Positions 5,761 to 55,260 of a stretch of DNA of 64,000 bases are shown here, piece after piece (the stretch's first letter is position 1; each line of letters opens with the position of its first letter). The DNA comes from Nitrospirales bacterium. Lineage in GTDB: Bacteria; Nitrospirota; Nitrospiria; Nitrospirales; UBA8639. The notes under the pieces are model-generated. The model was not told the origin of the DNA. It ran no database searches and saw nothing but the letters and a program-made list of their open reading frames with translations. The position numbers were made by a program, and so were the translations under genes. Location of the stretch: contig OY820905.2 in the NCBI GenBank assembly GCA_963555755.3, positions 4,064,001-4,128,000 of the forward strand, in the 5' to 3' direction.

Positions 5761-5843
5761 GGACAGGACAGGGACAGGGGTCAAATCTTGGACAGAGACA
5801 GGGACAGGGGTCAAGGACAGGGGTCAAATCTTTGGTTGACTAA
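5761..5843 (+). repeat. Stuttered solo end of element E, GGACAG-leader variant
   Basis: Iterated GGACAG / GGACAGGGGTCAAATCTT / GGACAGGGGTCAA / GGACAGGGGTCAAATCTTTGGTTGACTAA. Confidence 0.8.
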
Positions 5844-8048: not shown

Positions 8049-8329
8049 GAATTTAGGGTCTTCTCCCAAGTGAGTGGGTAAATTTGGGCGAGTCATTTTC
8101 TGAAAGGCTCGCTGGAGAAGAGGTTGGTGGATTTTTCTACCGTGGGAAAAGTGGCCAGGCGTTCTTGAGGCGTCACGCTGCTCATCCCTCCCCTTTGTAA
8201 GGGGAGGCTAGGTGCTGGCGCGCCGAAGCGTTTTGGCGAAGGCGTGGGGTAGAGCCCGTGGCAAGGAGCGAGCCACAGGCATGCTGAAAGCCCGGACCGA
8301 ATTCGACTCCAGGCTGCTGAGGTGGTTGG

Positions 8330-8530
8330 GATGTGCAGACACAGATGATAATGATTCCCCAGCAGGCAATAGGCCAAGACCTCGACGCCCCATAGCGTAT
8401 GGGTGTCACTCAACACCTGGAGAAAGGTTTCATAATCGGAGGGATCTCGAAAGACAGACTGACGTGCCAGGCCACGGTTCATGGCATGATAGACCGCGCC
8501 CGGATATTCAATGCGGAGAGGTCGGGCCGT
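8330..8530 (-). pseudogene. 5' remnant of RAYT/Y1 HUH transposase
   Basis: Minus strand reads (ACG)ARPLRIEYPGAVYHAMNRGLARQSVF..AYCLLGNHYHL. Start codon lost; truncated after the HUH motif. Confidence 0.85.
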
Positions 8531-8532
8531 AA

Positions 8533-8691
8533 GGGTCTGTCACGAAATAACCCGTACAATTGGGAGGCCCATCTTTGGCCCGGGGCGGCGTTGCTCCTCG
8601 GTCACAGAGCCCCGCTCTGCTCCCTCGTCGCGCCTTGCCCCGATCACAAATCTGGGCCTCCCAATTGTCCCGGTTATTTCGTGACGGACCC
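8533..8691. mobile_element. MITE family F (long TIR GGGTC.GTCACGAAATAACC)
   Basis: ~38-bp imperfect inverted ends; one end recurs near 52546. Confidence 0.7.
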
Positions 8692-16189: not shown

Positions 16190-16240
16190 TTAATCAAAGG
16201 CCCCGTAGCAAGCTGTCGTGGTATCCGAAAAGGATGTATA

Positions 16241-16381
16241 GGGCACCTCTAAAAACCGTCCTTTTCCGTGATGGCGGCGTCAGCCGCGTGCTCAAATCCT
16301 CATGTATTCGCCCATACACTCCGGTTTTCCGCGCGCGGCTTCCTTGCCCTCACAAAAAATGCCTGGTTTTTAGAGGTGCCC
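16241..16381 (+). mobile_element. MITE family B (141 bp), TSD TATA
   Basis: TIR GGGCACCTCTAAAAACC; 4-bp flanking duplication. Confidence 0.92.
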
Positions 16382-16654
16382 TATATGTAAATGCCACAGC
16401 AAGCCACGGGGAATTTAACCCATTTGTGGGATTAATCTGGAATTTTTTATGGACATTAGTAATCGCCAATATTCACCCTGATTGGGTAAACCATATTGTG
16501 AGATCAAAATTTCTTTTTGAATTTAGCTCCTATTATAACATTCATTCAGCCTGCTTTGGTATCACCCCTTCCGTTGCACTAGCGAGTTGAATCTAAGCAT
16601 TATTTTTATCTGAAGGTTATTCATGTGAAGGCCTGTAAAAGGTATTGTATTGTT

Positions 16655-23618: not shown

Positions 23619-23638
23619 AACTTAGTCAGCTCACACAA

Positions 23639-23779
23639 GGGCACCTCTAAACACCGTCCTTTTCCGTGATGGCGGCGTCAGCCGCGTGCTCACATCCTCA
23701 TGTATTCGCCCATACACTCCGGTTTTCCGCGCGCGGCTTCCTTGCCCTCACAAAAAATGCCTGGTTTTTAGAGGTGCCC
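23639..23779 (+). mobile_element. MITE family B, TSD ACAA
   Basis: Near-identical to 16241..16381. Confidence 0.92.
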
Positions 23780-27902: not shown

Positions 27903-28247
27903 TTCATTGAGCAGACGCGCAGCGGAAGCCTCGACGTGGAGGGAAAGGAGAAGCACATGCCCTTCTTGGGCCAACCGAAAAGTACTGAAGAGGCAACACG
28001 TTGTCAATTACAAATTGGGGAGGTTTCGGCGGCAGGGCTTTTGTGGTGTGAGCACTTCTCAATATTTAGGGTATAGGTGCAGACAAACGAAAGGCCCACG
28101 CGGTTACCAGCCGTTGAGCCTTCCCAAAAAGGGGAGCTGACACAATCTTTCACTAGGTTTAGTGTCTCACGAATCAGGCGGTTCGTCTATTCCTTAAACG
28201 AGGGGTCAACGTGTGATCTACACACACTTCATCATCTGAGTAATGTA

Positions 28248-28388
28248 GGGCACCTCTAAAAACCGTCCTTTTCCGTGATGGCGGCGTCAGCCGCGTGCTC
28301 ACATCCTCATGTATTCGCCCATACACTCCGGTTTTCCGCGCGCGGCTTCCTTGCCCTCACAAAAAATGCCTGGTTTTTAGAGGTGCCC
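28248..28388 (+). mobile_element. MITE family B, TSD TGTA
   Basis: Near-identical to the other copies. Confidence 0.92.
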
Positions 28389-28626
28389 TGTAGTCTACCC
28401 GCTTTCAATAACTCACCTGTCACCCCACCTGAATCACCGTCAGTCAATTTAACAGTATGGAGAAGTGGCTCGAGCCACCATGGATAAGCGCGATATTAAA
28501 TAATCGATACACGCGTCACACAAACAGCAAGCCTCACCGTTTCGGCGGTGGGGCTTTTGGTTGTTTCTTAAGACCACCAAGGGTGAGTTTGGGGAATCAA
28601 GGCGGGTGTCCCCTAACGGGACTATT

Positions 28627-32366: not shown

Positions 32367-32591
32367 AAAAAGGAAAAGAAAAGGGGTCAAATCTTAAAAG
32401 GGGTCAAATCTTTGGTTGACTAAAACTTTAGATTATGTCCCCTGCTCGGAAGAGAAGATCGCGCTCCCAGAAAAAAGCAGTGGATGAAAGAGCGACGAGA
32501 AGTTTGAAACGAAACTCTCAACCAAAGATTTGACCCCTTTTTGACCCCTTTTCAACCAAAGATTTGACCCCTTTTTGACCCCTTTTCTTTT
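32367..32591. mobile_element. Element E copy 1 (core 32396..32541) with stuttered ends
   Basis: TIR AAAAGGGGTCAAATCTTTGGTTGA plus partial end copies on both sides. Confidence 0.9.
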
Positions 32592-32823: not shown

Positions 32824-32878
32824 TGGTGCCGAAGGCGGGAGTTGAACCCGCACACCCGTGAGGGCACTAGAACCTGAA
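32824..32878 (-). other. att site: 55-bp copy of the tRNA-Leu 3' half up to the anticodon loop
   Basis: Identical to 44445..44499. Confidence 0.92.
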
Positions 32879-33920: not shown

Positions 33921-34712
33921 ATGAAACACTCATCCACCACCACAATGAACAGACAAACATCATCTTTACAAGGAAAGACCGCCCGTGCCAAGAGAGGGCT
34001 GATGCGCATAGCCCTGTGTCTGGTCGGGATGGCTTTCACGCTCCTGCCACTGCCAGCCCTTGCCTTAACCTGGAATTTGGCAGACGATTTCTCGCTCTCC
34101 AATCCAAACGCCCCGTGGGAGTACGGAAAGTACACCGGGGGGCTGGACCAGAACACGTTCCAGCAATATGCTAATTCAGAAATTTTTCCTCTTGGGGGGT
34201 CCGGCATACTCCACATTCATCGTAACTCCGGAACGGATGATCCCAACATCATAAAGAACGTTGGCATGGAAGACACTTGCTGTAGTGGTCCAATAACTTT
34301 TCATGCCGGTGCGGTGACGTTTGGGGCGACCTTTGGACCCGCAGTCGTGGTTTGGACCGCGCCATTTGCTGGGATGTTCCAGGTGGATGCCACGTTTGCA
34401 ACCGTTCAACCAGGCGTGAATGTCTTGCCTACTGCTCACGTTTTTAATGGGACTGTCTTTGTCAACCTAGCTGCCATCCCTGTCTTTGGTACCACCAGTG
34501 ATTATAGTGGGCTCTTGGCGCTGGGATTGGGCGAGGAGATCCACTTCGTGGTAGCCCCGACTACGGAAGGAGGGCAGAAGACGGTCGAAGTCTCGGCGAT
34601 CATCAACAGCATTCCGCGCACCAACCCTGTCCCCGAACCCAGCACGATGTTGCTGCTCGGATCAGGCTTAGTCGGACTCATTGGCTACCGGATGAAGAAA
34701 GCACAAGCGTAA
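33921..34712 (+). CDS. PEP-CTERM sorting-domain protein
   Basis: Signal peptide; C-terminal VPEPSTMLLLGSGLVGLIGYRMKKAQA. Confidence 0.92.
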   Translation: MKHSSTTTMNRQTSSLQGKTARAKRGLMRIALCLVGMAFTLLPLPALALTWNLADDFSLSNPNAPWEYGKYTGGLDQNTFQQYANSEIFPLGGSGILHIHRNSGTDDPNIIKNVGMEDTCCSGPITFHAGAVTFGATFGPAVVVWTAPFAGMFQVDATFATVQPGVNVLPTAHVFNGTVFVNLAAIPVFGTTSDYSGLLALGLGEEIHFVVAPTTEGGQKTVEVSAIINSIPRTNPVPEPSTMLLLGSGLVGLIGYRMKKAQA

Positions 34713-34742
34713 ACGCATAGTCGATAATTTAGTCACACAATC

Positions 34743-34780
34743 AAAGAGCCTCACCGTTTCGGCGGTGGGGCTCTTTCTCT
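34743..34780 (+). terminator. Rho-independent terminator-like hairpin (repeat family)
   Basis: AAAGAGCCTCACCGTTTCGGCGGTGGGGCTCTTT; relatives near 16743 (reverse), 28529, 31141, 33227, 42792. Confidence 0.75.
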
Positions 34781-34866
34781 TGGCCGCATTCATCAAGGTC
34801 TGTCACTGACCCAGAGACAGAGCTACAGACCCTATTTTCAATAACTGGACAATACATCCCCAAGCC

Positions 34867-35210
34867 ATGAACATCAGAATAATTCAGTGGAATATTTCAA
34901 TGAAATGCAAGGCCGAAAAAATAGCGTACTGCTTATCCCGCTATATTCATGGCCCCACCATTATTACCTTGCAAGAAGTTTTAAAATCCACATATGCCCA
35001 GATTGCGTCTGTGCTGACCCCTCCTGGAAGAGCGTACAGTCTTGCTTTACGAAAAGCCGGAAACCATGAAGGAAGAAATCGTAAAATGGGTGTCGCGACA
35101 TTCGTTTTCGAAGGCAGAATACCTCATTACGAACTCGTATCACGTAGTATTTTTCCAGAAAGAACCTTGTTTTCGACATGCCAATTCGAGGGGAAGAATA
35201 TTTCCTTGTA
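34867..35210 (+). pseudogene. Truncated endonuclease/exonuclease/phosphatase-family gene
   Basis: IIQWNI and ITLQEV motifs; abuts an XRE-like tail (IAQALGVTLSELV). Confidence 0.65.
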
Positions 35211-35282
35211 TCGCACAGGCTTTAGGCGTAACCCTCTCGGAGTTAGTCGGCGATCAACCACAATCAACCAAAAGGAGGTCCG

Positions 35283-36470
35283 ATGGGACGGACAAAACGA
35301 AAGGACGGGTATTACGTCGAGTTTCCCGTCATTGACGATGGGAAGGTCTTGACGTTAGCGAGAGGCACGCCTGGTGCCAAGGTGAAACGGTGGCGCGTCG
35401 GGTGCCGTAACAAAACGATGGCTCAAGACCAGGAAACTATTATCAAGAACAAGCTTCTCAACGGAACAATGGTAAGCGTTCGGGCAAAGCTGGCAATAAT
35501 GACCTTCGGCCAATGGGCCAAAGAATATGTGGAGATTGAAGAAGTGAAGTGTCTCCGCTCCTACACTGAGCGATGCCAGCGAATTACCGTGGTCCTTGTT
35601 CCATTCTTCGGCAAGACATTGTTGCAGGACATTACGGCCAAAGATGTAGAAGCCTTCCGCCAGGAGCGGGGGGAGGGGCGTGCTGTGGCTACCGTCAATG
35701 TGGATCACAACCTATTGAAGCACATGTTAAAGCATGCCATGAAGCGCGATTTGATTATGAGGAATGTGGCGTCTTTGGTCACAGCGCCGAAACCAAAGAA
35801 CGCTCGCAATCGAGTGCTCGAACCTGACGAGTGGAACCGGCTCTATGGTGCCGCGCCCGAATGGTTCCAGCCAGTGCTGTTGACGGGCTACCACACGGGG
35901 ATGCGACTAGAGGAAATCCTGACGCTCACGTGGGATCGGGTGGATCTGGAGAAGGGCCGCATGTTCCTTCCTGGACATCTGACCAAAACAGGGCAGGATC
36001 GTACCGTCCCTTTGACGCCGATGCTTCGGAAGGAACTGCAACAACTCCGGGACTATGGTGGCGTTGCTCGAATTCAAGGCTTGGTGTTTCAGAAGGATGG
36101 CCAGAAGATTAACCACAGCTATCGCGTGGTGAAGGAGTTATGCGAGGAGCAGCACATTCCGAACTTCGTCTTCCATGACTTGCGGCATTGTGCTGTCACG
36201 AATTTAGCGGATTCTGGAGTAGAGATTGAGACGATCATGAAAATCGTCGGGCATTCCAGTATTGAAATGTTCCTACGTTACCGCACCATCACGGCGGATA
36301 AATTAGACACCGCCATGTCCAGCCTTAACACGCTAATAACACGGCGTCAAAACGCCGCTCGCCAAGAAAAGGGGTCAGAAAAGGGGTCAAATCTTTGGTT
36401 GACTAAAACTTTAGATTATGTCCCCTGCTCGGAAGAGAAGATCGCGCTCCCAGAAAAAAGCAGTGGATGA
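35283..36470 (+). CDS. Tyrosine integrase, duplicate with C-terminus replaced by element E
   Basis: Identical to 43332.. up to AARQ, then reads through element E. Confidence 0.85.
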   Translation: MGRTKRKDGYYVEFPVIDDGKVLTLARGTPGAKVKRWRVGCRNKTMAQDQETIIKNKLLNGTMVSVRAKLAIMTFGQWAKEYVEIEEVKCLRSYTERCQRITVVLVPFFGKTLLQDITAKDVEAFRQERGEGRAVATVNVDHNLLKHMLKHAMKRDLIMRNVASLVTAPKPKNARNRVLEPDEWNRLYGAAPEWFQPVLLTGYHTGMRLEEILTLTWDRVDLEKGRMFLPGHLTKTGQDRTVPLTPMLRKELQQLRDYGGVARIQGLVFQKDGQKINHSYRVVKELCEEQHIPNFVFHDLRHCAVTNLADSGVEIETIMKIVGHSSIEMFLRYRTITADKLDTAMSSLNTLITRRQNAARQEKGSEKGSNLWLTKTLDYVPCSEEKIALPEKSSG

Positions 36471-36529
36471 AAGAGCGACGAGGAGTTTGAAACGAAACTC
36501 TCAACCAAAGATTTGACCCCTTTTTTTTT
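36367..36529. mobile_element. Element E copy 2 (core 36379..36524)
   Basis: Same TIRs; truncates the integrase on the left and the P450 on the right. Confidence 0.9.
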
Positions 36530-36988
36530 ATCATGGTCGAGAACTCGAATTTCACCCTCCCTCCAGGACCCCATCATGCGCTGTGTATATTCCGCCGTGA
36601 CTTTCACCAACCCATCTATTTGATGGCAAGGAAAGCAGCGTTGGACTAACTGTCGTTGCCGAATCCAACTAGCACCTTCGCTAGACATTAACCCATTGCC
36701 AAGTACATTCCAGGTAAAATCCTTTGGGGGACGTGACAAATTCCTGCTAAAAATTCGATGATTGGTTGTCAGGACGGTTTCGATAAGCTCGGGATGACAT
36801 AACAGGTATGCCCTTATGCCGGGAAAGCGAAGGCCTACCACATCACCATACTCGCGCGCGCATTGGGAAACAAACCCTAACGGGTCTCTTCTATACTCTA
36901 GAAGGTTGCCAAAAATGGGGTTGCCTTTAGGCCCAGGCGGAAAGGATTTAGCCGTCACGTAAGCGTACCTTTTCAAAAGGATGTACAA
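36530..36988 (-). pseudogene. Cytochrome P450 5' fragment
   Basis: PPGPKGNPIFGNL..LGNGLMSSEG..W.RQR; no haem motif, cut by element E. Confidence 0.85.
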
Positions 36989-37023
36989 AGGAACAACTCA
37001 TTGAACTTGACTCCCCTGAAACT

Positions 37024-38097
37024 CTACTTCTGACGCCAAAGCAACAAATAACCGGTGATCAATTGAATCGAAATCCCAATCCCCACGACGACATAAAGCA
37101 GTTTTGTGAACAATCCTCCGAAATAACCCGCGTGAAGAGGGACATCAAGGTTAATGAAGCGTTGTCCCATTGACGCTGTACGACTGTCTTCTGTTCGAAT
37201 CACGTCTCCACTATGTGGGTCGATATAGACCACACTTGATCCCCTCGGATTGGTATCCTCGGAAAACCGCTTTCGGACTTGAAAAGGCTGCCTAGGTCCT
37301 AAGGGCATTCGAATCATGACGATTTTTCCACCAGAAAGTGTCGTATTCGCAATGTGTACAAGATCGGATACTCGCTGAGGCCTTAGAGGAGCCTCGGATA
37401 ATGTATGTGATGCCAGTGGAGGATTTCCGTTTGGGCCCTTGGCTAGGCTTTGAACCAAATTTCCAACTAGCGGAAAGGAGAAATAGACACCCGTTAAGGC
37501 AATAACCAGCACAACAATGGCTGAATGTATTCCCCACATATTATGCATATCCAAAACGGCATGCTTCCATCCTGAATTTAATCTGAGACGCCAAATGGTC
37601 TTGAGTGTGTTAGGTGATCTCCTCCACCATAGGATCAGGCCTGTTAGTGTCGAGACAATTAGTAGAATACTCCCCATGCCATTCAGAGTTATTCCAATAG
37701 GCCCTCCTAGAAATAGATCCATATGAAAAATTAATATAAACCCCATCAGTGATCCACTCATAGTCCTGGAACCTAAGATTTCACCGGAATACGGGTTAAC
37801 ATAGATGCGGGAATTCCACGAATTGATAAGTAGTTCGTAGACTCCTTCAGGTGACCTGGGGAACGTAATTGAGATGATTCGATCTGGAGAACGGGTACTT
37901 TGAACGTTGGTCATAATCTCTTCAAGAGATAAAATTTCCCCCTGCGGCGTAACTCGAAGCAGTTGAGGATTCAGCCATTCATCAATTTCGGAATGGAACA
38001 CGAGAATACTTCCTGTCGTACCCATCAGGAGAAAATATACGCCAATATACAGATTTAAATAACGATGAATACTATGAAAAATTCTTTGTGGCTGCAT
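37024..38097 (-). CDS. PepSY-associated TM-helix protein
   Basis: HRYL..TGSILVF..EID.WLNP, YVNPYSGEILG, LHAG motifs. Confidence 0.9.
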   Translation of the reverse strand: MQPQRIFHSIHRYLNLYIGVYFLLMGTTGSILVFHSEIDEWLNPQLLRVTPQGEILSLEEIMTNVQSTRSPDRIISITFPRSPEGVYELLINSWNSRIYVNPYSGEILGSRTMSGSLMGFILIFHMDLFLGGPIGITLNGMGSILLIVSTLTGLILWWRRSPNTLKTIWRLRLNSGWKHAVLDMHNMWGIHSAIVVLVIALTGVYFSFPLVGNLVQSLAKGPNGNPPLASHTLSEAPLRPQRVSDLVHIANTTLSGGKIVMIRMPLGPRQPFQVRKRFSEDTNPRGSSVVYIDPHSGDVIRTEDSRTASMGQRFINLDVPLHAGYFGGLFTKLLYVVVGIGISIQLITGYLLLWRQK

Positions 38098-38151
38098 AGC
38101 TTGGTTCCTAGATCACGAAGAAGTAAATATCCACGGGCTTACCCCCCCTGG

Positions 38152-40055
38152 CAGGGCCATTTCATTCTTTTTATAAGCAAGGGATTCCATGAGGTTTTTT
38201 GTGCCCTCTTTTTCAGGGCAGGGCCATGCGGATGGCTAAATGGGGCTTGCCCCAGAGCAGTCTACACGCCTGCGCGATATTGGTGTAGCCTTTCAGGCGT
38301 AAGAGACTGATGGCATAGCGTCTCAGACAGGTCATGACCATTGGGCCATTGAGACTTCGTATCTGACTCCTGTCTTCATCAAAGGTGACGTCCAACACAT
38401 AATGCTGCTTATTCTCCACACTCCAATGCTTTCGGTTTTGCGAGAGGATGGTCTTCGGCCCCGCCTTGTCTTTGGACTGACTCGTGACACCGCAGACCGC
38501 TTCGACGGTCGTGAGGCCCTGCTTGAGATGCGTCACTTCCCTCTCAATGCAGAAGACTTGCTGGACATGAGGAAAGTTGACATAGGCATTCAGGGAGTCA
38601 TCGCACCAGATCCTGCGGGTCGTGATCTGCCCATGGCCTTTCTCGGTGGTGGCATAATCGCACCGGCGTGCTCGCAACGCTAAGGCCTCAATGTCGTGCT
38701 TCAAGGTGGGCTGGTTTCCCTTGACGGTGAAGACGAAGTCGGCGCCGCGTTCGTGCACCAGGTACTCGGCAATCTCTTTCTGGGTGAGGAGCGCATCCGC
38801 CGTGATCACCTTCCCTGCGATCTCGAGCGCATCTAACAGGGGCCGCACGCAGGGGATCTCATTGGTCTTGGAGTGAACTTTTTTTGGGTGAGGTGGCGCC
38901 CGGCTTGATGGGTGACGGCGCTGAGGACGTGGGGCTGTTCGCTTGGGACCTTCGACGTCCCCCGCATGGTCTTCCCATCAATGGCAATGCCCTGATCCTC
39001 CCCGCCGAAGGTGTCCAGCCACCGGCCGAGCAGGGTATCGACTTCACAGGGGTCGACGGCCGTGATAAAGCGGTAAAGAGTGCTGCGGCTCGGGACGAGG
39101 TAGCGCCCCCCTCGCTGAGTACAGCCTAGCCGCTTGCGCATCGGCTGCGATAACTGCTGGGCCCAGTCCGAGATCGCTTCATAGCCGCGCGCGCCGCACA
39201 AGGTGGCACAGAACATGATCGCCGTGAGGGCGCGTCGGGTGTGCCGTTGCCCTTGCAAATGGCGGGGATCGGTCAGCTGCACCACATACGTAAAGAGGGA
39301 GTCCGTCTGTTTTGTATTCAATCTCATCTGAGGCGCTTCTCCTTTCTGATAGGGCTGATCAAGCATCGGGCGTGCAAGGATCTCTCGGGCTTGGGGATGC
39401 AGCCGCACGACTAGGATGCGCTTCGGTCTCTCATGCTGAACATAACACGTGTTCGACTTGCGAAACCCTCGTGTCAGACCGAGCTCGTGCCACCCGGCGG
39501 CCCGATAGCAGGTCCCGGTGAAGCGGGCAGGATCGACGAAGGTCTCTAAGAGGAGCAAGGGGTAGCCGTGGTACAGTTGCCAATCGGCCGAGATCCGTTT
39601 CGCGCAGAGCGACAGGACTTTCGAGGCGAGGTTCTTTTGCGAACAGCCCGGCAGCATGAGAAACCAGGTGTTGTTGGCCAGTAAATGGAGTCGTTGCCAT
39701 TGAAAACAGGGGGGCCAGCCGATCCAGTGGTCTCGCGGTCTCGATTTGAGGGCCGCCGCCGCAAACACCAGCAAGGCCAGCCAGCGATCCTGCACACAGG
39801 CGAGATATTGTATCGATTGGCCAATCAGCGGGGCATGACCGAGGTAGTGGTGTCTGTCGAGAAGGGTCTTGAAGGCGTCCTTTTCGTCTCGGACAATTGG
39901 GCGAACCACGACTTGCCTCAGATCAATGTCCGGCTGTCCGCTTGGCGATTCGTCTGGCATACAAAAGAGTATGCCGTAAACGAAAAGAAAAAGCCAGCCT
40001 AAATCGATTATTCCTTATTATCTATAAAGTTACACTTTAATATGAAATAGCCCTG
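38152..40055 (-). mobile_element. ISAs1-family IS (1,904 bp), 10-bp TSD CCCCCCCTGG
   Basis: TIR CAGGGCCATTTCAT / CAGGGCTATTTCAT; TSD at 38142-38151 and 40056-40065. Confidence 0.92.
38213..39960 (-). CDS. ISAs1 transposase with N-terminal DUF4338 (DruA-like) domain, split by a -1 frameshift
   Basis: HHYLG, LLETFVDP..FTGTCYRAAGW; AIDGKT; A7G slip restores QKKVHSKTNEIP; ITADAL, VKGNQP, HWSVEN, FDED. Confidence 0.88.
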
Positions 40056-40606
40056 CCCCCCCTGGTCCGCCGCTCTAGCCTTGATAGATAACATCAGGTC
40101 AAAGCCGTCCGAGTGCAAAGAGCCCTGGTGAAATAGCCGACAACGACGGAACAGCTCTTTCCTTACATGGCATTAATTCTTCTCTTCAGCTCGCCGTCCT
40201 CCGCCCAGGATTTTCTTCAGCTTTTTTTCGAACACACTTCAGAGTATGCTTTGACACCGAGATGACTCAGACCACACCTTGCACGTCAATGCGAAGAATT
40301 GGGTGCTCGTCCAATTCGGCAAACACACGGTCCAATACGTCCCTTGAAAGAGCACGGTATCCTGGCGTAGTAGGCCGGTGGCCAAAAATTCGGTTCGCCC
40401 TCACGACGTGTTCCCTGTTAAGCAACAGACCAAAGATGATCCATGGGCCTACGTTATGTCCACAGGACATCCCTTTAAGACGTCACAATATTTCCTATTG
40501 ATTTGGAGAATATGGAAGTTCTGGAAGTCCATAGTTTAGCCAATGATCAATGGTGACTAATAAACGGAACGAAACGCCCGATTTGATTGAGAAGACAAAA
40601 AGATAC

Positions 40607-40824
40607 AAAAGGGGTCAAATCTTTGGTTGACTAAAACTTTGAAAAGGGGTCAAATCTTTGGTTGAAAAGGGGTCAAATCTTTGGTTGCCTAAAACTTTAG
40701 ATTATGTCCCCCTGCTCGGAAGAGAAGATCGCGCTCCCAGAAAAAAGCAGTGGATGAAGACGAGGAGTTTGAAACGAAACTCTCAACCAAAGATTTGACC
40801 CCTTTCTGACCCCTTTCCCCTTTC
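40607..40824. mobile_element. Element E copy 3 with stuttered ends
   Basis: Three left-end starts (40607, 40642, 40665); right-end stutters use a GAAAG leader. Confidence 0.9.
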
Positions 40825-40856
40825 TAAACCGTCTTTTTTCCCAAGGTTTATAACAC

Positions 40857-41159
40857 CTACCGAAGTTGTAGTTCTAGTTTTAAGCCAACTGCTTCCGCAG
40901 CCTTTTTCATAGTGTGCAACGTCACCGATTCATTTTCTGGATCTAGTAAGCGATCCAATTGAGATCGGCTGGTTTCCATGTGGGAAGCCATGGCTGCCTT
41001 CGATAGATTCTTTCGTTCCATGGCTTCGCTCAGTTTGTATGACAGTACTTTTTTAATCGCATCAGTTTGACAATCTTCGTACTGTCCTTCCGCTTTCAGT
41101 AATCCTTCAAGCGTGGACCCGGATCGTGGGTTAATCTTTTTCCGTTTCATATCGCTCAT
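40857..41159 (-). CDS. XRE/HTH antitoxin
   Basis: SKAAMASHMETSRSQLDRLLDPENESVTL; overlaps the toxin stop. Confidence 0.88.
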   Translation of the reverse strand: MSDMKRKKINPRSGSTLEGLLKAEGQYEDCQTDAIKKVLSYKLSEAMERKNLSKAAMASHMETSRSQLDRLLDPENESVTLHTMKKAAEAVGLKLELQLR

Positions 41160-41505
41160 GCTCCTTCTTGCGTTTGTTTGCGAGCTTTAATTCTTTTTCT
41201 GGGGTCTTTTGTGATTTCTTCACAAATCCATGAAGCAGCACCATTTCAGGACCACTCACATAGAAAAACACTCGTGCAATTCGTCCATCCGGTAAATCAC
41301 TGCGGACTTCACGAAGCCCAGCATAGCCTGATAAAGACCTACACAGTGGTTGGCCACAGGGCCAACCAAATTCGACGGTCATGATGTCCCTGCCGATGAT
41401 CTTCCGATTGGCACCAGCCAATTCCAACAGCCATTCCCTAACAGGCTCTTTCCCACTGGGAAGCCTGTAAAACATAGCTGTAATGACCTTCTGAACTTGA
41501 CTCAC
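41131..41505 (-). CDS. RelE/HigB-like toxin (Gp49/DUF891 type)
   Basis: GKEPVREWL, LREVRS, ARVFF, LLHGFVKKSQKTP. Confidence 0.9.
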   Translation of the reverse strand: MSQVQKVITAMFYRLPSGKEPVREWLLELAGANRKIIGRDIMTVEFGWPCGQPLCRSLSGYAGLREVRSDLPDGRIARVFFYVSGPEMVLLHGFVKKSQKTPEKELKLANKRKKEHERYETEKD

Positions 41506-41513
41506 ATATTATA

Positions 41514-41529
41514 GTACCAAAAAAGGTAC
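41514..41529. promoter_or_regulatory. Candidate TA autoregulatory operator
   Basis: GTACC-N6-GGTAC palindrome just upstream of the toxin start. Confidence 0.5.
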
Positions 41530-42170
41530 ATTCCTGCAATCTTTTTTTCGAGGTTAAATATCCCAATGTCCCACTGAAGGTTGGCTTTTTCCGAAATGTG
41601 CCTTAGAGTTAAAAGTTGGCCAGAAAAGGTAAGGGAGAAACTCTCAAAAAGGGGTTCTGTCGCAAATAATAGAGTTGTGAGTTACGCCACTGGTTTTCAT
41701 GTTGGACCAAGTTGAAAAACTCCAGTAAAGTTGACAATTCTCGTCTGCGGGACACGGAGATAAAACCCCTTATTGCCTTCAAAAACATTGTTTGCGACAG
41801 AACCGAAAAAATCGCTTCCGTCAGCATACGTTAGGCCCCCTCTCGAAACGCGGCTATTTTTTCAGAGGTTTTTAAAATCTGGGGGGAATCTATCCCCTTC
41901 CTGCCAAGTTATTTGTTTGGCCATTTCTTTTTCAACTTCTCTACCAGCCACTGCCATTTCCCATGTTCGTGTGGTAATTTCAATATCCCATCCAAATTAG
42001 CTCCGGTAAGGTTTCCCCCTCCCTTCTGAATCTATCTTGAAAGACCCTGCGGTTGATGAATAGAGCCCCGTCCGATATTCTCCTGAGGCGTGTTGGAATG
42101 AACGCAGATTCGCTAGTCGACTTGCCGCCCCAAATCCCTTCATGAGGGTGCTATGCCCTGTGCGTTTTAG

Positions 42171-42390
42171 AAAAGGAAAAGGGGTCAAATCTTTAAAAGA
42201 AAAGGGGTCAAATCTTTGGTTGACTAAAAAAGGGGTCAAATCTTTGGTTGACTAAAACTTTAGATTATGTCCCCTGCTCGGAAGAGAAGATCGCGCTCCC
42301 AGAAAAAAGCAGTGGATGAAAGAGCGACGAGGAGTTTGAAACGAAACTCTCAACCAAAGATTTGACCCCTTTTTCTTTTTGACCCCTTTT
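42171..42390. mobile_element. Element E copy 4 (core 42228..42373) with stuttered ends
   Basis: Same TIRs; abuts the start of duplication copy 2. Confidence 0.9.
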
Positions 42391-44415
42391 CAGTCGTGGT
42401 TTGGACCGCGCCATTTGCTGGGATGTTCCAGGTGGATGCCACGTTTGCAACCGTTCAACCAGGCGTGAATGTCTTGCCTACTGCTCACGTTTTTAATGGG
42501 ACTGTCTTTGTCAACCTAGCTGCCATCCCTGTCTTTGGTACCACCAGTGATTATAGTGGGCTCTTGGCGCTGGGATTGGGCGAGGAGATCCACTTCGTGG
42601 TAGCCCCGACTACGGAAGGAGGGCAGAAGACGGTCGAAGTCTCGGCGATCATCAACAGCATTCCGCGCACCAACCCTGTCCCCGAACCCAGCACGATGTT
42701 GCTGCTCGGATCAGGCTTAGTCGGACTCATTGGCTACCGGATGAAGAAAGCACAAGCGTAAACGCATAGTCGATAATTTAGTCACACAATCAAAGAGCCT
42801 CACCGTTTCGGCGGTGGGGCTCTTTCTCTTGGCCGCATTCATCAAGGTCTGTCACTGACCCAGAGACAGAGCTACAGACCCTATTTTCAATAACTGGACA
42901 ATACATCCCCAAGCCATGAACATCAGAATAATTCAGTGGAATATTTCAATGAAATGCAAGGCCGAAAAAATAGCGTACTGCTTATCCCGCTATATTCATG
43001 GCCCCACCATTATTACCTTGCAAGAAGTTTTAAAATCCACATATGCCCAGATTGCGTCTGTGCTGACCCCTCCTGGAAGAGCGTACAGTCTTGCTTTACG
43101 AAAAGCCGGAAACCATGAAGGAAGAAATCGTAAAATGGGTGTCGCGACATTCGTTTTCGAAGGCAGAATACCTCATTACGAACTCGTATCACGTAGTATT
43201 TTTCCAGAAAGAACCTTGTTTTCGACATGCCAATTCGAGGGGAAGAATATTTCCTTGTATCGCACAGGCTTTAGGCGTAACCCTCTCGGAGTTAGTCGGC
43301 GATCAACCACAATCAACCAAAAGGAGGTCCGATGGGACGGACAAAACGAAAGGACGGGTATTACGTCGAGTTTCCCGTCATTGACGATGGGAAGGTCTTG
43401 ACGTTAGCGAGAGGCACGCCTGGTGCCAAGGTGAAACGGTGGCGCGTCGGGTGCCGTAACAAAACGATGGCTCAAGACCAGGAAACTATTATCAAGAACA
43501 AGCTTCTCAACGGAACAATGGTAAGCGTTCGGGCAAAGCTGGCAATAATGACCTTCGGCCAATGGGCCAAAGAATATGTGGAGATTGAAGAAGTGAAGTG
43601 TCTCCGCTCCTACACTGAGCGATGCCAGCGAATTACCGTGGTCCTTGTTCCATTCTTCGGCAAGACATTGTTGCAGGACATTACGGCCAAAGATGTAGAA
43701 GCCTTCCGCCAGGAGCGGGGGGAGGGGCGTGCTGTGGCTACCGTCAATGTGGATCACAACCTATTGAAGCACATGTTAAAGCATGCCATGAAGCGCGATT
43801 TGATTATGAGGAATGTGGCGTCTTTGGTCACAGCGCCGAAACCAAAGAACGCTCGCAATCGAGTGCTCGAACCTGACGAGTGGAACCGGCTCTATGGTGC
43901 CGCGCCCGAATGGTTCCAGCCAGTGCTGTTGACGGGCTACCACACGGGGATGCGACTAGAGGAAATCCTGACGCTCACGTGGGATCGGGTGGATCTGGAG
44001 AAGGGCCGCATGTTCCTTCCTGGACATCTGACCAAAACAGGGCAGGATCGTACCGTCCCTTTGACGCCGATGCTTCGGAAGGAACTGCAACAACTCCGGG
44101 ACTATGGTGGCGTTGCTCGAATTCAAGGCTTGGTGTTTCAGAAGGATGGCCAGAAGATTAACCACAGCTATCGCGTGGTGAAGGAGTTATGCGAGGAGCA
44201 GCACATTCCGAACTTCGTCTTCCATGACTTGCGGCATTGTGCTGTCACGAATTTAGCGGATTCTGGAGTAGAGATTGAGACGATCATGAAAATCGTCGGG
44301 CATTCCAGTATTGAAATGTTCCTACGTTACCGCACCATCACGGCGGATAAATTAGACACCGCCATGTCCAGCCTTAACACGCTAATAACACGGCGTCAAA
44401 ACGCCGCTCGCCAAG
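42391..44415 (+). repeat. 2,025-bp direct repeat, copy 2 (5'-truncated PEP-CTERM, EEP fragment, integrase)
   Basis: Appears identical to 34342..36366. Confidence 0.95.
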
Positions 44416-44438
44416 TCACTGAAATCACTGCACTTTAA
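43332..44438 (+). CDS. Tyrosine recombinase/integrase
   Basis: TGMRLEE, TKTG, FHDLRH, VGHSS, RY catalytic set; ends 6 bp from the tRNA 3' end. Confidence 0.95.
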   Translation: MGRTKRKDGYYVEFPVIDDGKVLTLARGTPGAKVKRWRVGCRNKTMAQDQETIIKNKLLNGTMVSVRAKLAIMTFGQWAKEYVEIEEVKCLRSYTERCQRITVVLVPFFGKTLLQDITAKDVEAFRQERGEGRAVATVNVDHNLLKHMLKHAMKRDLIMRNVASLVTAPKPKNARNRVLEPDEWNRLYGAAPEWFQPVLLTGYHTGMRLEEILTLTWDRVDLEKGRMFLPGHLTKTGQDRTVPLTPMLRKELQQLRDYGGVARIQGLVFQKDGQKINHSYRVVKELCEEQHIPNFVFHDLRHCAVTNLADSGVEIETIMKIVGHSSIEMFLRYRTITADKLDTAMSSLNTLITRRQNAARQVTEITAL

Positions 44439-44444
44439 TTGAAT

Positions 44445-44530
44445 TGGTGCCGAAGGCGGGAGTTGAACCCGCACACCCGTGAGGGCACTAGAACCTGAAT
44501 CTAGCGCGTCTGCCATTCCGCCACTTCGGC
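44445..44530 (-). tRNA. tRNA-Leu(CAG)
   Basis: GCCGAAG acceptor stem, anticodon arm CTAGA-TTCAGGT-TCTAG, long variable arm, GTTCAA T-loop, CCA end. Confidence 0.97.
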
Positions 44531-54783: not shown

Positions 54784-55260
54784 ATGCAAATAACCGAACG
54801 AGTCGTTGGTCTGGATAATATTCTTTCGCTGAGTGGGAAAGTTGTGTATGAGGCGAGAAAAGATTTTCAACAGGCCTTCTAGGAAGCCAAAGAGAAAATT
54901 CCCCCGAAAACTCGTGCTCAATATGGAAGGGTTGACCTATCTTGATAGTTCTGGGCTGGGGATGCGTGTCGTAGGTTGTGAGCAAGCCAAGCTACTCAAT
55001 CTTGCCTTCTGTTTAGTGAATCCTGTTGGTGCCCTGAGGCAAATTTTTGATTTGGCCCAGCTTCCGGCAATGATGCCTGTGCATGACACTAAAGGGCACC
55101 TCTACAAACCAGGCATTTTTTGTGAGGGCAAGGAAGCCGCGCGCGGAAAACCGGAGTGTATGGGCGAATACATGAGGATGTGAGCACGCGGCTGACGCCG
55201 CCATCACGGAAAAGGACGGTTTTTAGAGGTGCCCTAAAGAACAAGCCCTCCGCCTGACCC
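54784..55260 (+). pseudogene. STAS anti-sigma antagonist (stop, frameshift, MITE insertion)
   Basis: MQITER..; LTYLDSSGLG; removing the MITE restores HDTKEQAL. Confidence 0.8.
55094..55234 (-). mobile_element. MITE family B, TSD TAAA
   Basis: Reverse copy with both TIRs. Confidence 0.92.

Follow-up and report, generated by a model that had tools for sequence, protein, structure and literature searches.

TIRtrons are elements in which a Y1/HUH transposase (TIRYT) with a Bac_DnaA_C tail lies between terminal inverted repeats (TIRs) carrying a GGGGWSAS-like motif, which is given for most, not all, members, and they are accompanied by dispersed TIR dimers and clusters (Di Nocera 2013, PMC3733652; Quentin 2018, PMC6006769). 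The available sections of these descriptions do not mention mobility, tip stacks, duplications of flanks or a replication bias. TIRYTs represent a widespread subclass of HUH transposases, and neither a mechanism nor a mobility test for them was found in the literature searched. Here, a gene-less TIRtron-type element, called E, is described together with an insert that it bounds and that is flanked by a duplication of 2,025 bp. The analysed DNA is a 64-kb stretch of the genome of a Nitrospirales bacterium (GCA_963555755.3, contig OY820905.2, positions 4,064,001 to 4,128,000), hereafter the window. Unprefixed coordinates refer to this window, those prefixed G000:C1 to the contig of the whole genome.

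Insertion of restriction-modification genes with long target duplication was reportedly described by Nobusato in 2000. In the insertions of this kind treated in PMC2853133, a potentially addictive module likewise lies between long direct repeats, but these are defined as lacking other mobile elements, whereas transposon ends form the junctions at the locus presented here. IS1549 and IS1634 also possess long and variable flanking repeats (8-514 bp), which are shorter than the one described here and belong to elements with DDE transposases; no mechanism had been proposed for them at the time of that report (PMC2266710). The IS481 case of P. fluorescens SBW25 shows the same order of repeat, element and repeat without a short target duplication, and was cleanly lost by recombination in the assay of that study, yet it concerns a DDE element and a single case of about 60 kb, which was attributed to break capture (PMC11708052). 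The TIRtron family and inserts between long repeats are known, but no description of the end-linked duplication as a product or of its likely route was found, and a single two-ended case is presented here. No report tying long flanking duplications to TIRYTs was found in the literature searched, supplements aside, where the TIR lists of PMC3733652 may show stacked ends.

Self-comparison of the window revealed two stretches of 2,025 bp (34342-36366 and 42391-44415) with 0 mismatches between them. They enclose an insert (36367-42390) whose first base is base 1 of an E tip and whose last base is the final base of the inverted E tip, as the initial annotation had claimed. Since one G is common to E and target at each of the two junctions, the repeat measures 2,025 bp or, if the Gs are assigned to E, 2,023 bp. 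The following features make up the arrangement, E2 to E4 being copies of E in the form of miniature inverted-repeat transposable elements (MITEs):

33921..34712, plus strand, intact PEP-CTERM protein gene, extending into repeat copy 1
34342..36366, plus strand, repeat copy 1, 2,025 bp by self-comparison
35283..36470, plus strand, integrase copy 1, first 361 amino acids identical, final 7 swapped for 34 encoded by E
36367..36530 (core 36379-36525), plus strand, E2, left-hand MITE with 24-bp perfect inverted arms and an additional tip unit of 12 nt adjoining the junction
40607..40818 (core about 40665-40806), plus strand, E3, internal MITE with tip stacks and small indels
42177..42390 (core 42228-42373), plus strand, E4, right-hand MITE with tip stacks, core identical to that of E2, right tip forming the second junction
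42391..44415, plus strand, repeat copy 2, 2,025 bp, starting within the PEP-CTERM gene
43332..44438, plus strand, intact tyrosine integrase gene, 368 amino acids, completed by repeat copy 2
44445..44530, minus strand, tRNA-Leu(CAG), transcribed head-on relative to the inferred fork, with 30 bp between its 3′ end and the right edge of the repeat
32824..32878, minus strand, partial tRNA-Leu copy (3′ part, 55 bp), 100% identical to 44445-44499, att-like island boundary
32374..32591 (core 32396-32542), plus strand, E1, MITE flanked on either side by tip stacks, located just outside the island and differing from E2/E4 in 1 base

Both junctions are intragenic, yet one intact copy of each gene remains thanks to the duplication: repeat copy 1 completes the PEP-CTERM gene and copy 2 the integrase. 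The expected restoration of a continuous segment from PEP-CTERM gene through integrase to tRNA upon removal of the insert and one repeat is borne out. With insert and one repeat subtracted, the integrase island bounded by the 55-bp tRNA copy amounts to 3,517 bp. The join between integrase and tRNA-Leu following repeat copy 2 is identical in two genomes of the same genus (G002 and G005), which identifies the right flank as ancestral.

An assembly artefact, in which a single copy of 2,025 bp was placed twice, would agree with the complete identity of the two copies and with the fact that no spanning molecule was seen. The coverage check proposed in the initial annotation against such a misassembly was made on contigs of three runs, from three samples and two studies (a fourth run gave no placed reads). 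The repeat contig had a depth of 172 compared to 80.7-98.2 for its neighbours in the first run, of 109.4 compared to 47.1-64.6 in the second and of 286.5 compared to 126.3-138.8 in the third, the neighbours being the listed pieces outside the ISAs1-family element of the insert; these values come from contigs and not from single molecules, depth is not strictly copy number, and one run is possibly the source of the assembly. In addition, contigs break exactly at 36366/44415 and in two runs also 30 bp into the repeat. The approximately twofold depth in three runs from three samples and the breaks at the repeat edges render the artefact extremely improbable. Since the listed pieces of the insert outside ISAs1 have about the depth of the flanks, there is no large subpopulation without the insert.

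E has a length of about 146 bp with perfect inverted arms of 24 bp, and its four copies in the window all share one orientation. Among 17 Y1_Tnp matches in the genome, an intact protein of 322 amino acids (C1:761,643-762,611) matches Y1_Tnp with an E-value of 8e-12 and contains HYH and YIHLNP motifs, in line with the HUH and Y-x3-NP signature. Its C-terminus matches Bac_DnaA_C (E 7.8e-10, above the cut-off) as well as DnaA domains in the PDB. On both sides of its gene lies an inverted-repeat core of 20 bp that is identical to the E core; these are TIRs rather than REP hairpins (REP, repetitive extragenic palindrome). The E arms match the two ends of this element end for end, over 27 and 25 nt, which identifies E as a non-autonomous derivative, i.e., a MITE, of a TIRtron. 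Judged by its sequence, E is a MITE of the TIRtron/TIRYT group, TnpA-Y1 subclass 2.1.2, and the 322-amino-acid TIRYT presumably acts on it in trans. E fits the GGGGWSAS motif at 7 of 8 positions, differing at position 8, whereas other end families of the genome fit at 8/8. In total, 14 full MITE copies of about 140-147 bp occur in the genome, all gene-less and in four sequence variants, and other genomes as well as metagenomes also contain the E repeat, either as MITEs or adjacent to Y1 genes. An assignment of E to IS200/IS605 was rejected, as the 24-bp perfect inverted arms contrast with the subterminal hairpins, asymmetric ends and lack of TIRs of that group. The window also contains a TIRYT gene fragment without ends (8093-8539) and a solo stack of E-type ends with a different leader (5777-5840). 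To the left of E1, the stretch 31985-32369 matches C1:4036440-4036825 in inverted orientation with 97.9% identity and stops at the E1 tip stack.

Ten hand-defined end families yielded 109 end clusters in the genome. Tip-anchored stacks of partial copies with variable stops were present at 62 of these, compared to 52 of 2,226 other GGGTCA-type sites. The units mostly comprise 11-13 nt, but own-end copies of 76, 433 and 596 bp were also detected, and in G042, a genome of another family, a 610-bp tandem own-end copy starts from a TIR tip (L054:10215-11435). Within a stack, the 4-nt leader stays constant in 98 of 110 steps, compared to a fraction of 0.12 expected from the pool, which indicates that the stacks were copied locally. 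Their frequency did not depend on the strand (p=0.4). Stack matches, some of them by chance, were found in 32 of 151 genomes of the class, this genome being the richest by far, and few stacks were seen in four genomes of another lineage. Half of the outer junctions with known continuation (13/26) lie 4-5 nt outside the core, nine of them, including both focal junctions, at a G shared with the target. The fixed junction offset, together with the pervasive tip stacks, suggests an enzyme acting at the tip, and the offsets would fit a cut beside the shared G and a model of nicking, priming and rejoining. For HUH enzymes, nick-prime-rejoin is the published model for the amplification of bacterial interspersed mosaic elements (BIMEs; PMC3333891). 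TnpA-REP and BIMEs resemble the present case in HUH chemistry with a 5′-phosphotyrosine and a 3′-OH, in cut sites of low specificity and in a nick-prime-rejoin model for tandem units, but REPs are GTAG-tagged hairpins, in contrast to the long inverted repeats at the ends described here, next to which genes are copied over kilobases (PMC3333891, PMC8266576).

Many junctions have 1-3 bases in common with the target, which is also in line with host repair, i.e., with a duplication caused by polymerase template switching or break repair during which E-ended DNA was captured via one-base microhomology without HUH transfer. The IS481 copy amid a duplication of about 60 kb in Pseudomonas was ascribed to insertion at a break (PMC11708052), which lends this explanation some support. 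Nevertheless, one preferred junction offset from the core and the pervasive tip stacks argue against it, and we consider it quite unlikely.

No consistent short target duplication was recognizable in 23 end pairs, for which the longest flanking direct repeat measured 0-6 nt and mostly consisted of A/T runs. A classical DDE composite transposon was rejected because of the missing short target duplication of fixed length and of the missing second site for the unit. When 57 local direct repeats of low copy number, with 114 inner and 114 outer boundaries, were scanned without bias for the query core GGGTCA, the end core was located at 11 inner and three outer boundaries, 0.39 being expected genome-wide. 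Low-copy flanks were directly copied on the inner side within 12 kb for 10 of 109 ends compared to 50 of 3,270 nearby controls (p=1.6e-5), while the outer side showed no such excess (3/109 compared to 55/3,270). Apart from the focal locus, the only two-sided one, end-linked duplications range from 80 to 2,174 bp and are all one-sided. The largest (G000:C1:387742-394188) is a direct duplication of 2,174 bp with 99.7% identity in a gene named putA-like by eye, with a TIR tip at the left junction at the same offset; its right junction has 7 nt in common with the TIR interior and was scored as having no end. Its insert of 2.1 kb contains a HigB-type toxin gene and IS91-like fragments. A duplication of 436 bp (G000:C1:831272-833047) in a histidine-kinase-like gene (by eye) starts mid-gene at a TIR tip and stops at a REP-like hairpin, and its 904-bp insert comprises a DUF433 gene and a second small open reading frame (ORF). 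The expectation that other E-type ends would be associated with duplications of variable length thus holds for the enrichment at inner boundaries and the range of sizes, but not for a two-ended arrangement. At a further site (G000:C1:87773-96860), annotated from ORF listings, unrelated gene fragments are separated by four co-oriented MITEs; a duplication of 613 bp adjoins the first tip, and two ISAs1 occur in tandem.

The reading we prefer, and to which we give an even chance, is that TIRYT acting in trans joined the two outer E tips of the insert singly, each to a 3′ end in replicated DNA, the 3′ ends being on opposite strands and separated by 2,025 bp. A nick would be placed at or beside the G located five bases outside the GGGG run, and the tip would be carried as 5′-phosphotyrosine and then passed to a new 3′-OH, each outer tip being joined separately by the Y1/HUH transposase of this genome. 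Gap filling would then copy the stretch between the two joined 3′ ends, which would produce the duplication of 2,025 bp, rounds of nicking, short extension and rejoining would generate the tip stacks, and ISAs1 would have arrived after the duplication. Both 3′ ends might have been located at a replication fork, e.g., as a strand stalled before the head-on tRNA and the end of an Okazaki fragment 2 kb behind it, although we regard this addition as tentative, with the chances against it. A head-on tRNA 30 bp from the right edge of the repeat would possibly suit a stalled fork. Owing to its symmetry, the two-ended arrangement does not by itself speak for or against the Okazaki idea. According to GC skew, the origin lies near 2.71 Mb and the terminus near 0.57 Mb, with dnaA at 2.92 Mb. 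On this basis, the tip of unpaired ends is on the leading-sequence strand, i.e., the lagging template, in 52 of 70 cases (background for GGGGTCA 0.535), a bias in this genome that suggests a link to replication. A lagging-template preference in the style of IS200/IS605 is seen as a bias in this genome but not in G022, a relative.

Several observations weigh against the joining of single tips by TIRYT and against its coupling to replication. The contrast between inner and outer boundaries is marginal, with a p-value of 0.05, two of the 11 inner hits represent a tandem repeat and an own-end copy, and ends at both inner boundaries occur in only one of the 57 local repeats, so that the two-ended event has n=1. 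Without the two focal ends and three others whose flank repeats alongside end or MITE sequence, the flank test drops to 5/107 (p=0.029). No end-linked flank duplication was found in 19 regions of 11 other genomes or in 32 loci of a collection scan, many of them on short contigs. Compared to the long-ORF bias of 0.59, the strand bias is weaker (52/70, p=0.010; 32:11 loci, p=0.044), and the value of 52/58 is reached by a post hoc removal of one divergent end type (12/12 on the opposite strand). G022, with about 11 sites (about six leading, four lagging, one ambiguous), has no clear strand bias, and among the TIR-linked duplication edges only the focal one is less than 3 kb away from a tRNA. No TIRYT assay was found in the literature searched, and the polarity of the cut and the strand of the tyrosine link are not readable from sequence. 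Of the mechanism suggested in the initial annotation, with ends joined to opposite strands at the scale of Okazaki fragments, the tips on opposite strands 2 kb apart, the equal offset at both junctions and the enrichment of ends at other duplications stood up, whereas the strand bias was not reproduced in G022. Proximity to a tRNA was not supported as a general rule. The divergent end type with 12/12 copies on the opposite replication strand adjoins group II intron-like elements, and such elements, with reverse transcriptase ORFs recognized by eye, are repeatedly found inside the TIR core with the tip removed (G000:C1:240553-244658 and other sites).

The same tRNA site is equally tied to another history, which starts from a tandem duplication of the tRNA-Leu island (3.5 kb) by the integrase encoded on it; about 1.5 kb surrounding the middle attachment site would later have been replaced by an insertion bounded by E, giving the appearance of a target duplication. 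The entire repeat is contained in the small integrase island, with its edge 30 bp from the attachment site, and one TIRtron in the genome occupies the place of 2,684 extra bases in a paralogous region, both as this history would have it. It is nevertheless very unlikely, since none of 12 joints listed from the contigs of three samples (rare forms dropped) corresponds to an island circle or a tandem join, and since similar end-linked duplications cut the histidine-kinase-like and putA-like genes named by eye, integrase islands at those loci aside.

Returning to the joining of single tips by TIRYT, the insert itself carries the following genes and elements between the E copies:

36531..36988, minus strand, cytochrome P450 gene, 5′ fragment truncated at the right tip of E2
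37024..38097, minus strand, PepSY/PepSY_TM membrane protein gene, single copy
38152..40055, minus strand, ISAs1-family element, flanked by a 10-bp target duplication of its own (38142-38151 and 40056-40065)
40857..41159, minus strand, putative antitoxin gene, HTH_37/HTH_26
41131..41505, minus strand, putative toxin gene, Gp49/DUF891 RelE-like, weak match to HigB structure 6af3 (E 5e-5)

Neither the remainder of the P450 gene or a donor site nor the unit at a second site was found in the genome, in which the cargo outside ISAs1 is single-copy. PepSY was not found at E<=1e-20 in six same-genus genomes (59-99% complete), and PepSY homologues in three relatives are not accompanied by a P450 gene within the loci examined. 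ISAs1, which had been proposed to be mobilised along with the other cargo, does not fit this role: a separate target duplication of 10 bp flanks it, a further 38 near-full-length copies occur in the genome, and the element is missing from the contig of one sample in which the repeat still has about twofold depth. The latter implies that ISAs1 probably arrived after the duplication and, consequently, that the original insert probably measured 4,110 bp. The first ORF of ISAs1 (38833-39960) contains an N-terminal DruA-like domain, and its transposase extends over two overlapping frames. At 41653-41804, a dispersed repeat of 152 bp was observed, of which the genome contains four or more additional, near-identical copies.

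Without ISAs1, the insert consists of three co-oriented E copies around two segments of 2,161 and 1,358 bp, an order which allows a stepwise history via E-containing circles. According to this alternative, a single 146-bp MITE produced the order repeat, E, repeat by the same joining of tips, and the two cargo segments entered later as recombining circles containing E, with no composite transposon involved. In line with this, E2, E3 and E4 share one orientation, the cores of E2 and E4 are identical, and all four multi-copy MITE arrays of the genome are internally co-oriented, each with a local sequence variant; moreover, the segments are of the same size as the duplications and one of them stops mid-gene at a tip. 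On the other hand, no circle containing E and no donor locus were observed, the genome has the cargo only once, and local hopping could equally give co-oriented arrays, which is why we judge such a history unlikely.

The adjacent Gp49/DUF891 toxin-family and HTH_37 genes with their overlapping ORFs would correspond to a type II toxin-antitoxin (TA) arrangement, and it is plausible that this predicted pair stabilises the insert against loss. Genome-wide, 14 of 77 TA genes, belonging to six TA families, lie within 1 kb of a TIR end on either side, compared to 4.1 expected after local shifts and to 5/77 near the 96 ISAs1 ends. TA genes are present in 4 of 8 end-linked inserts compared to 7 of 41 others (p=0.063), so that an association with end-linked inserts is suggestive only.

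The family becomes directly testable, since one genome combines an intact candidate for the enzyme with the corresponding MITE and allows both the cut position and the product to be predicted, the latter being variable duplications in place of a short target repeat. The locus also bears on how an intragenic insertion can leave genes intact and on how elements make long variable flanking repeats, a question open as of PMC2266710. Separate end joining, if true, would provide a route for TIRtron elements to duplicate whole genes. In a wider and doubtful generalisation, TIRtron MITEs might be double-ended adaptors: at replication forks, their HUH enzyme would weld each of the tips to whichever free 3′ end is close by, and the products would be duplications of kilobases, circles that pop out, and co-oriented arrays composed of TA modules and captured pieces of genes. 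If true, this would constitute a third HUH way of transposition beside the peel-and-paste of IS200/IS605 and the rolling circle of IS91.

Self-comparison of the window additionally revealed a palindromic family of about 147 bp, unrelated to E, with copies that are 98-99% identical at 16239-16385, 23638-23779, 28246-28394 and 55088-55236.

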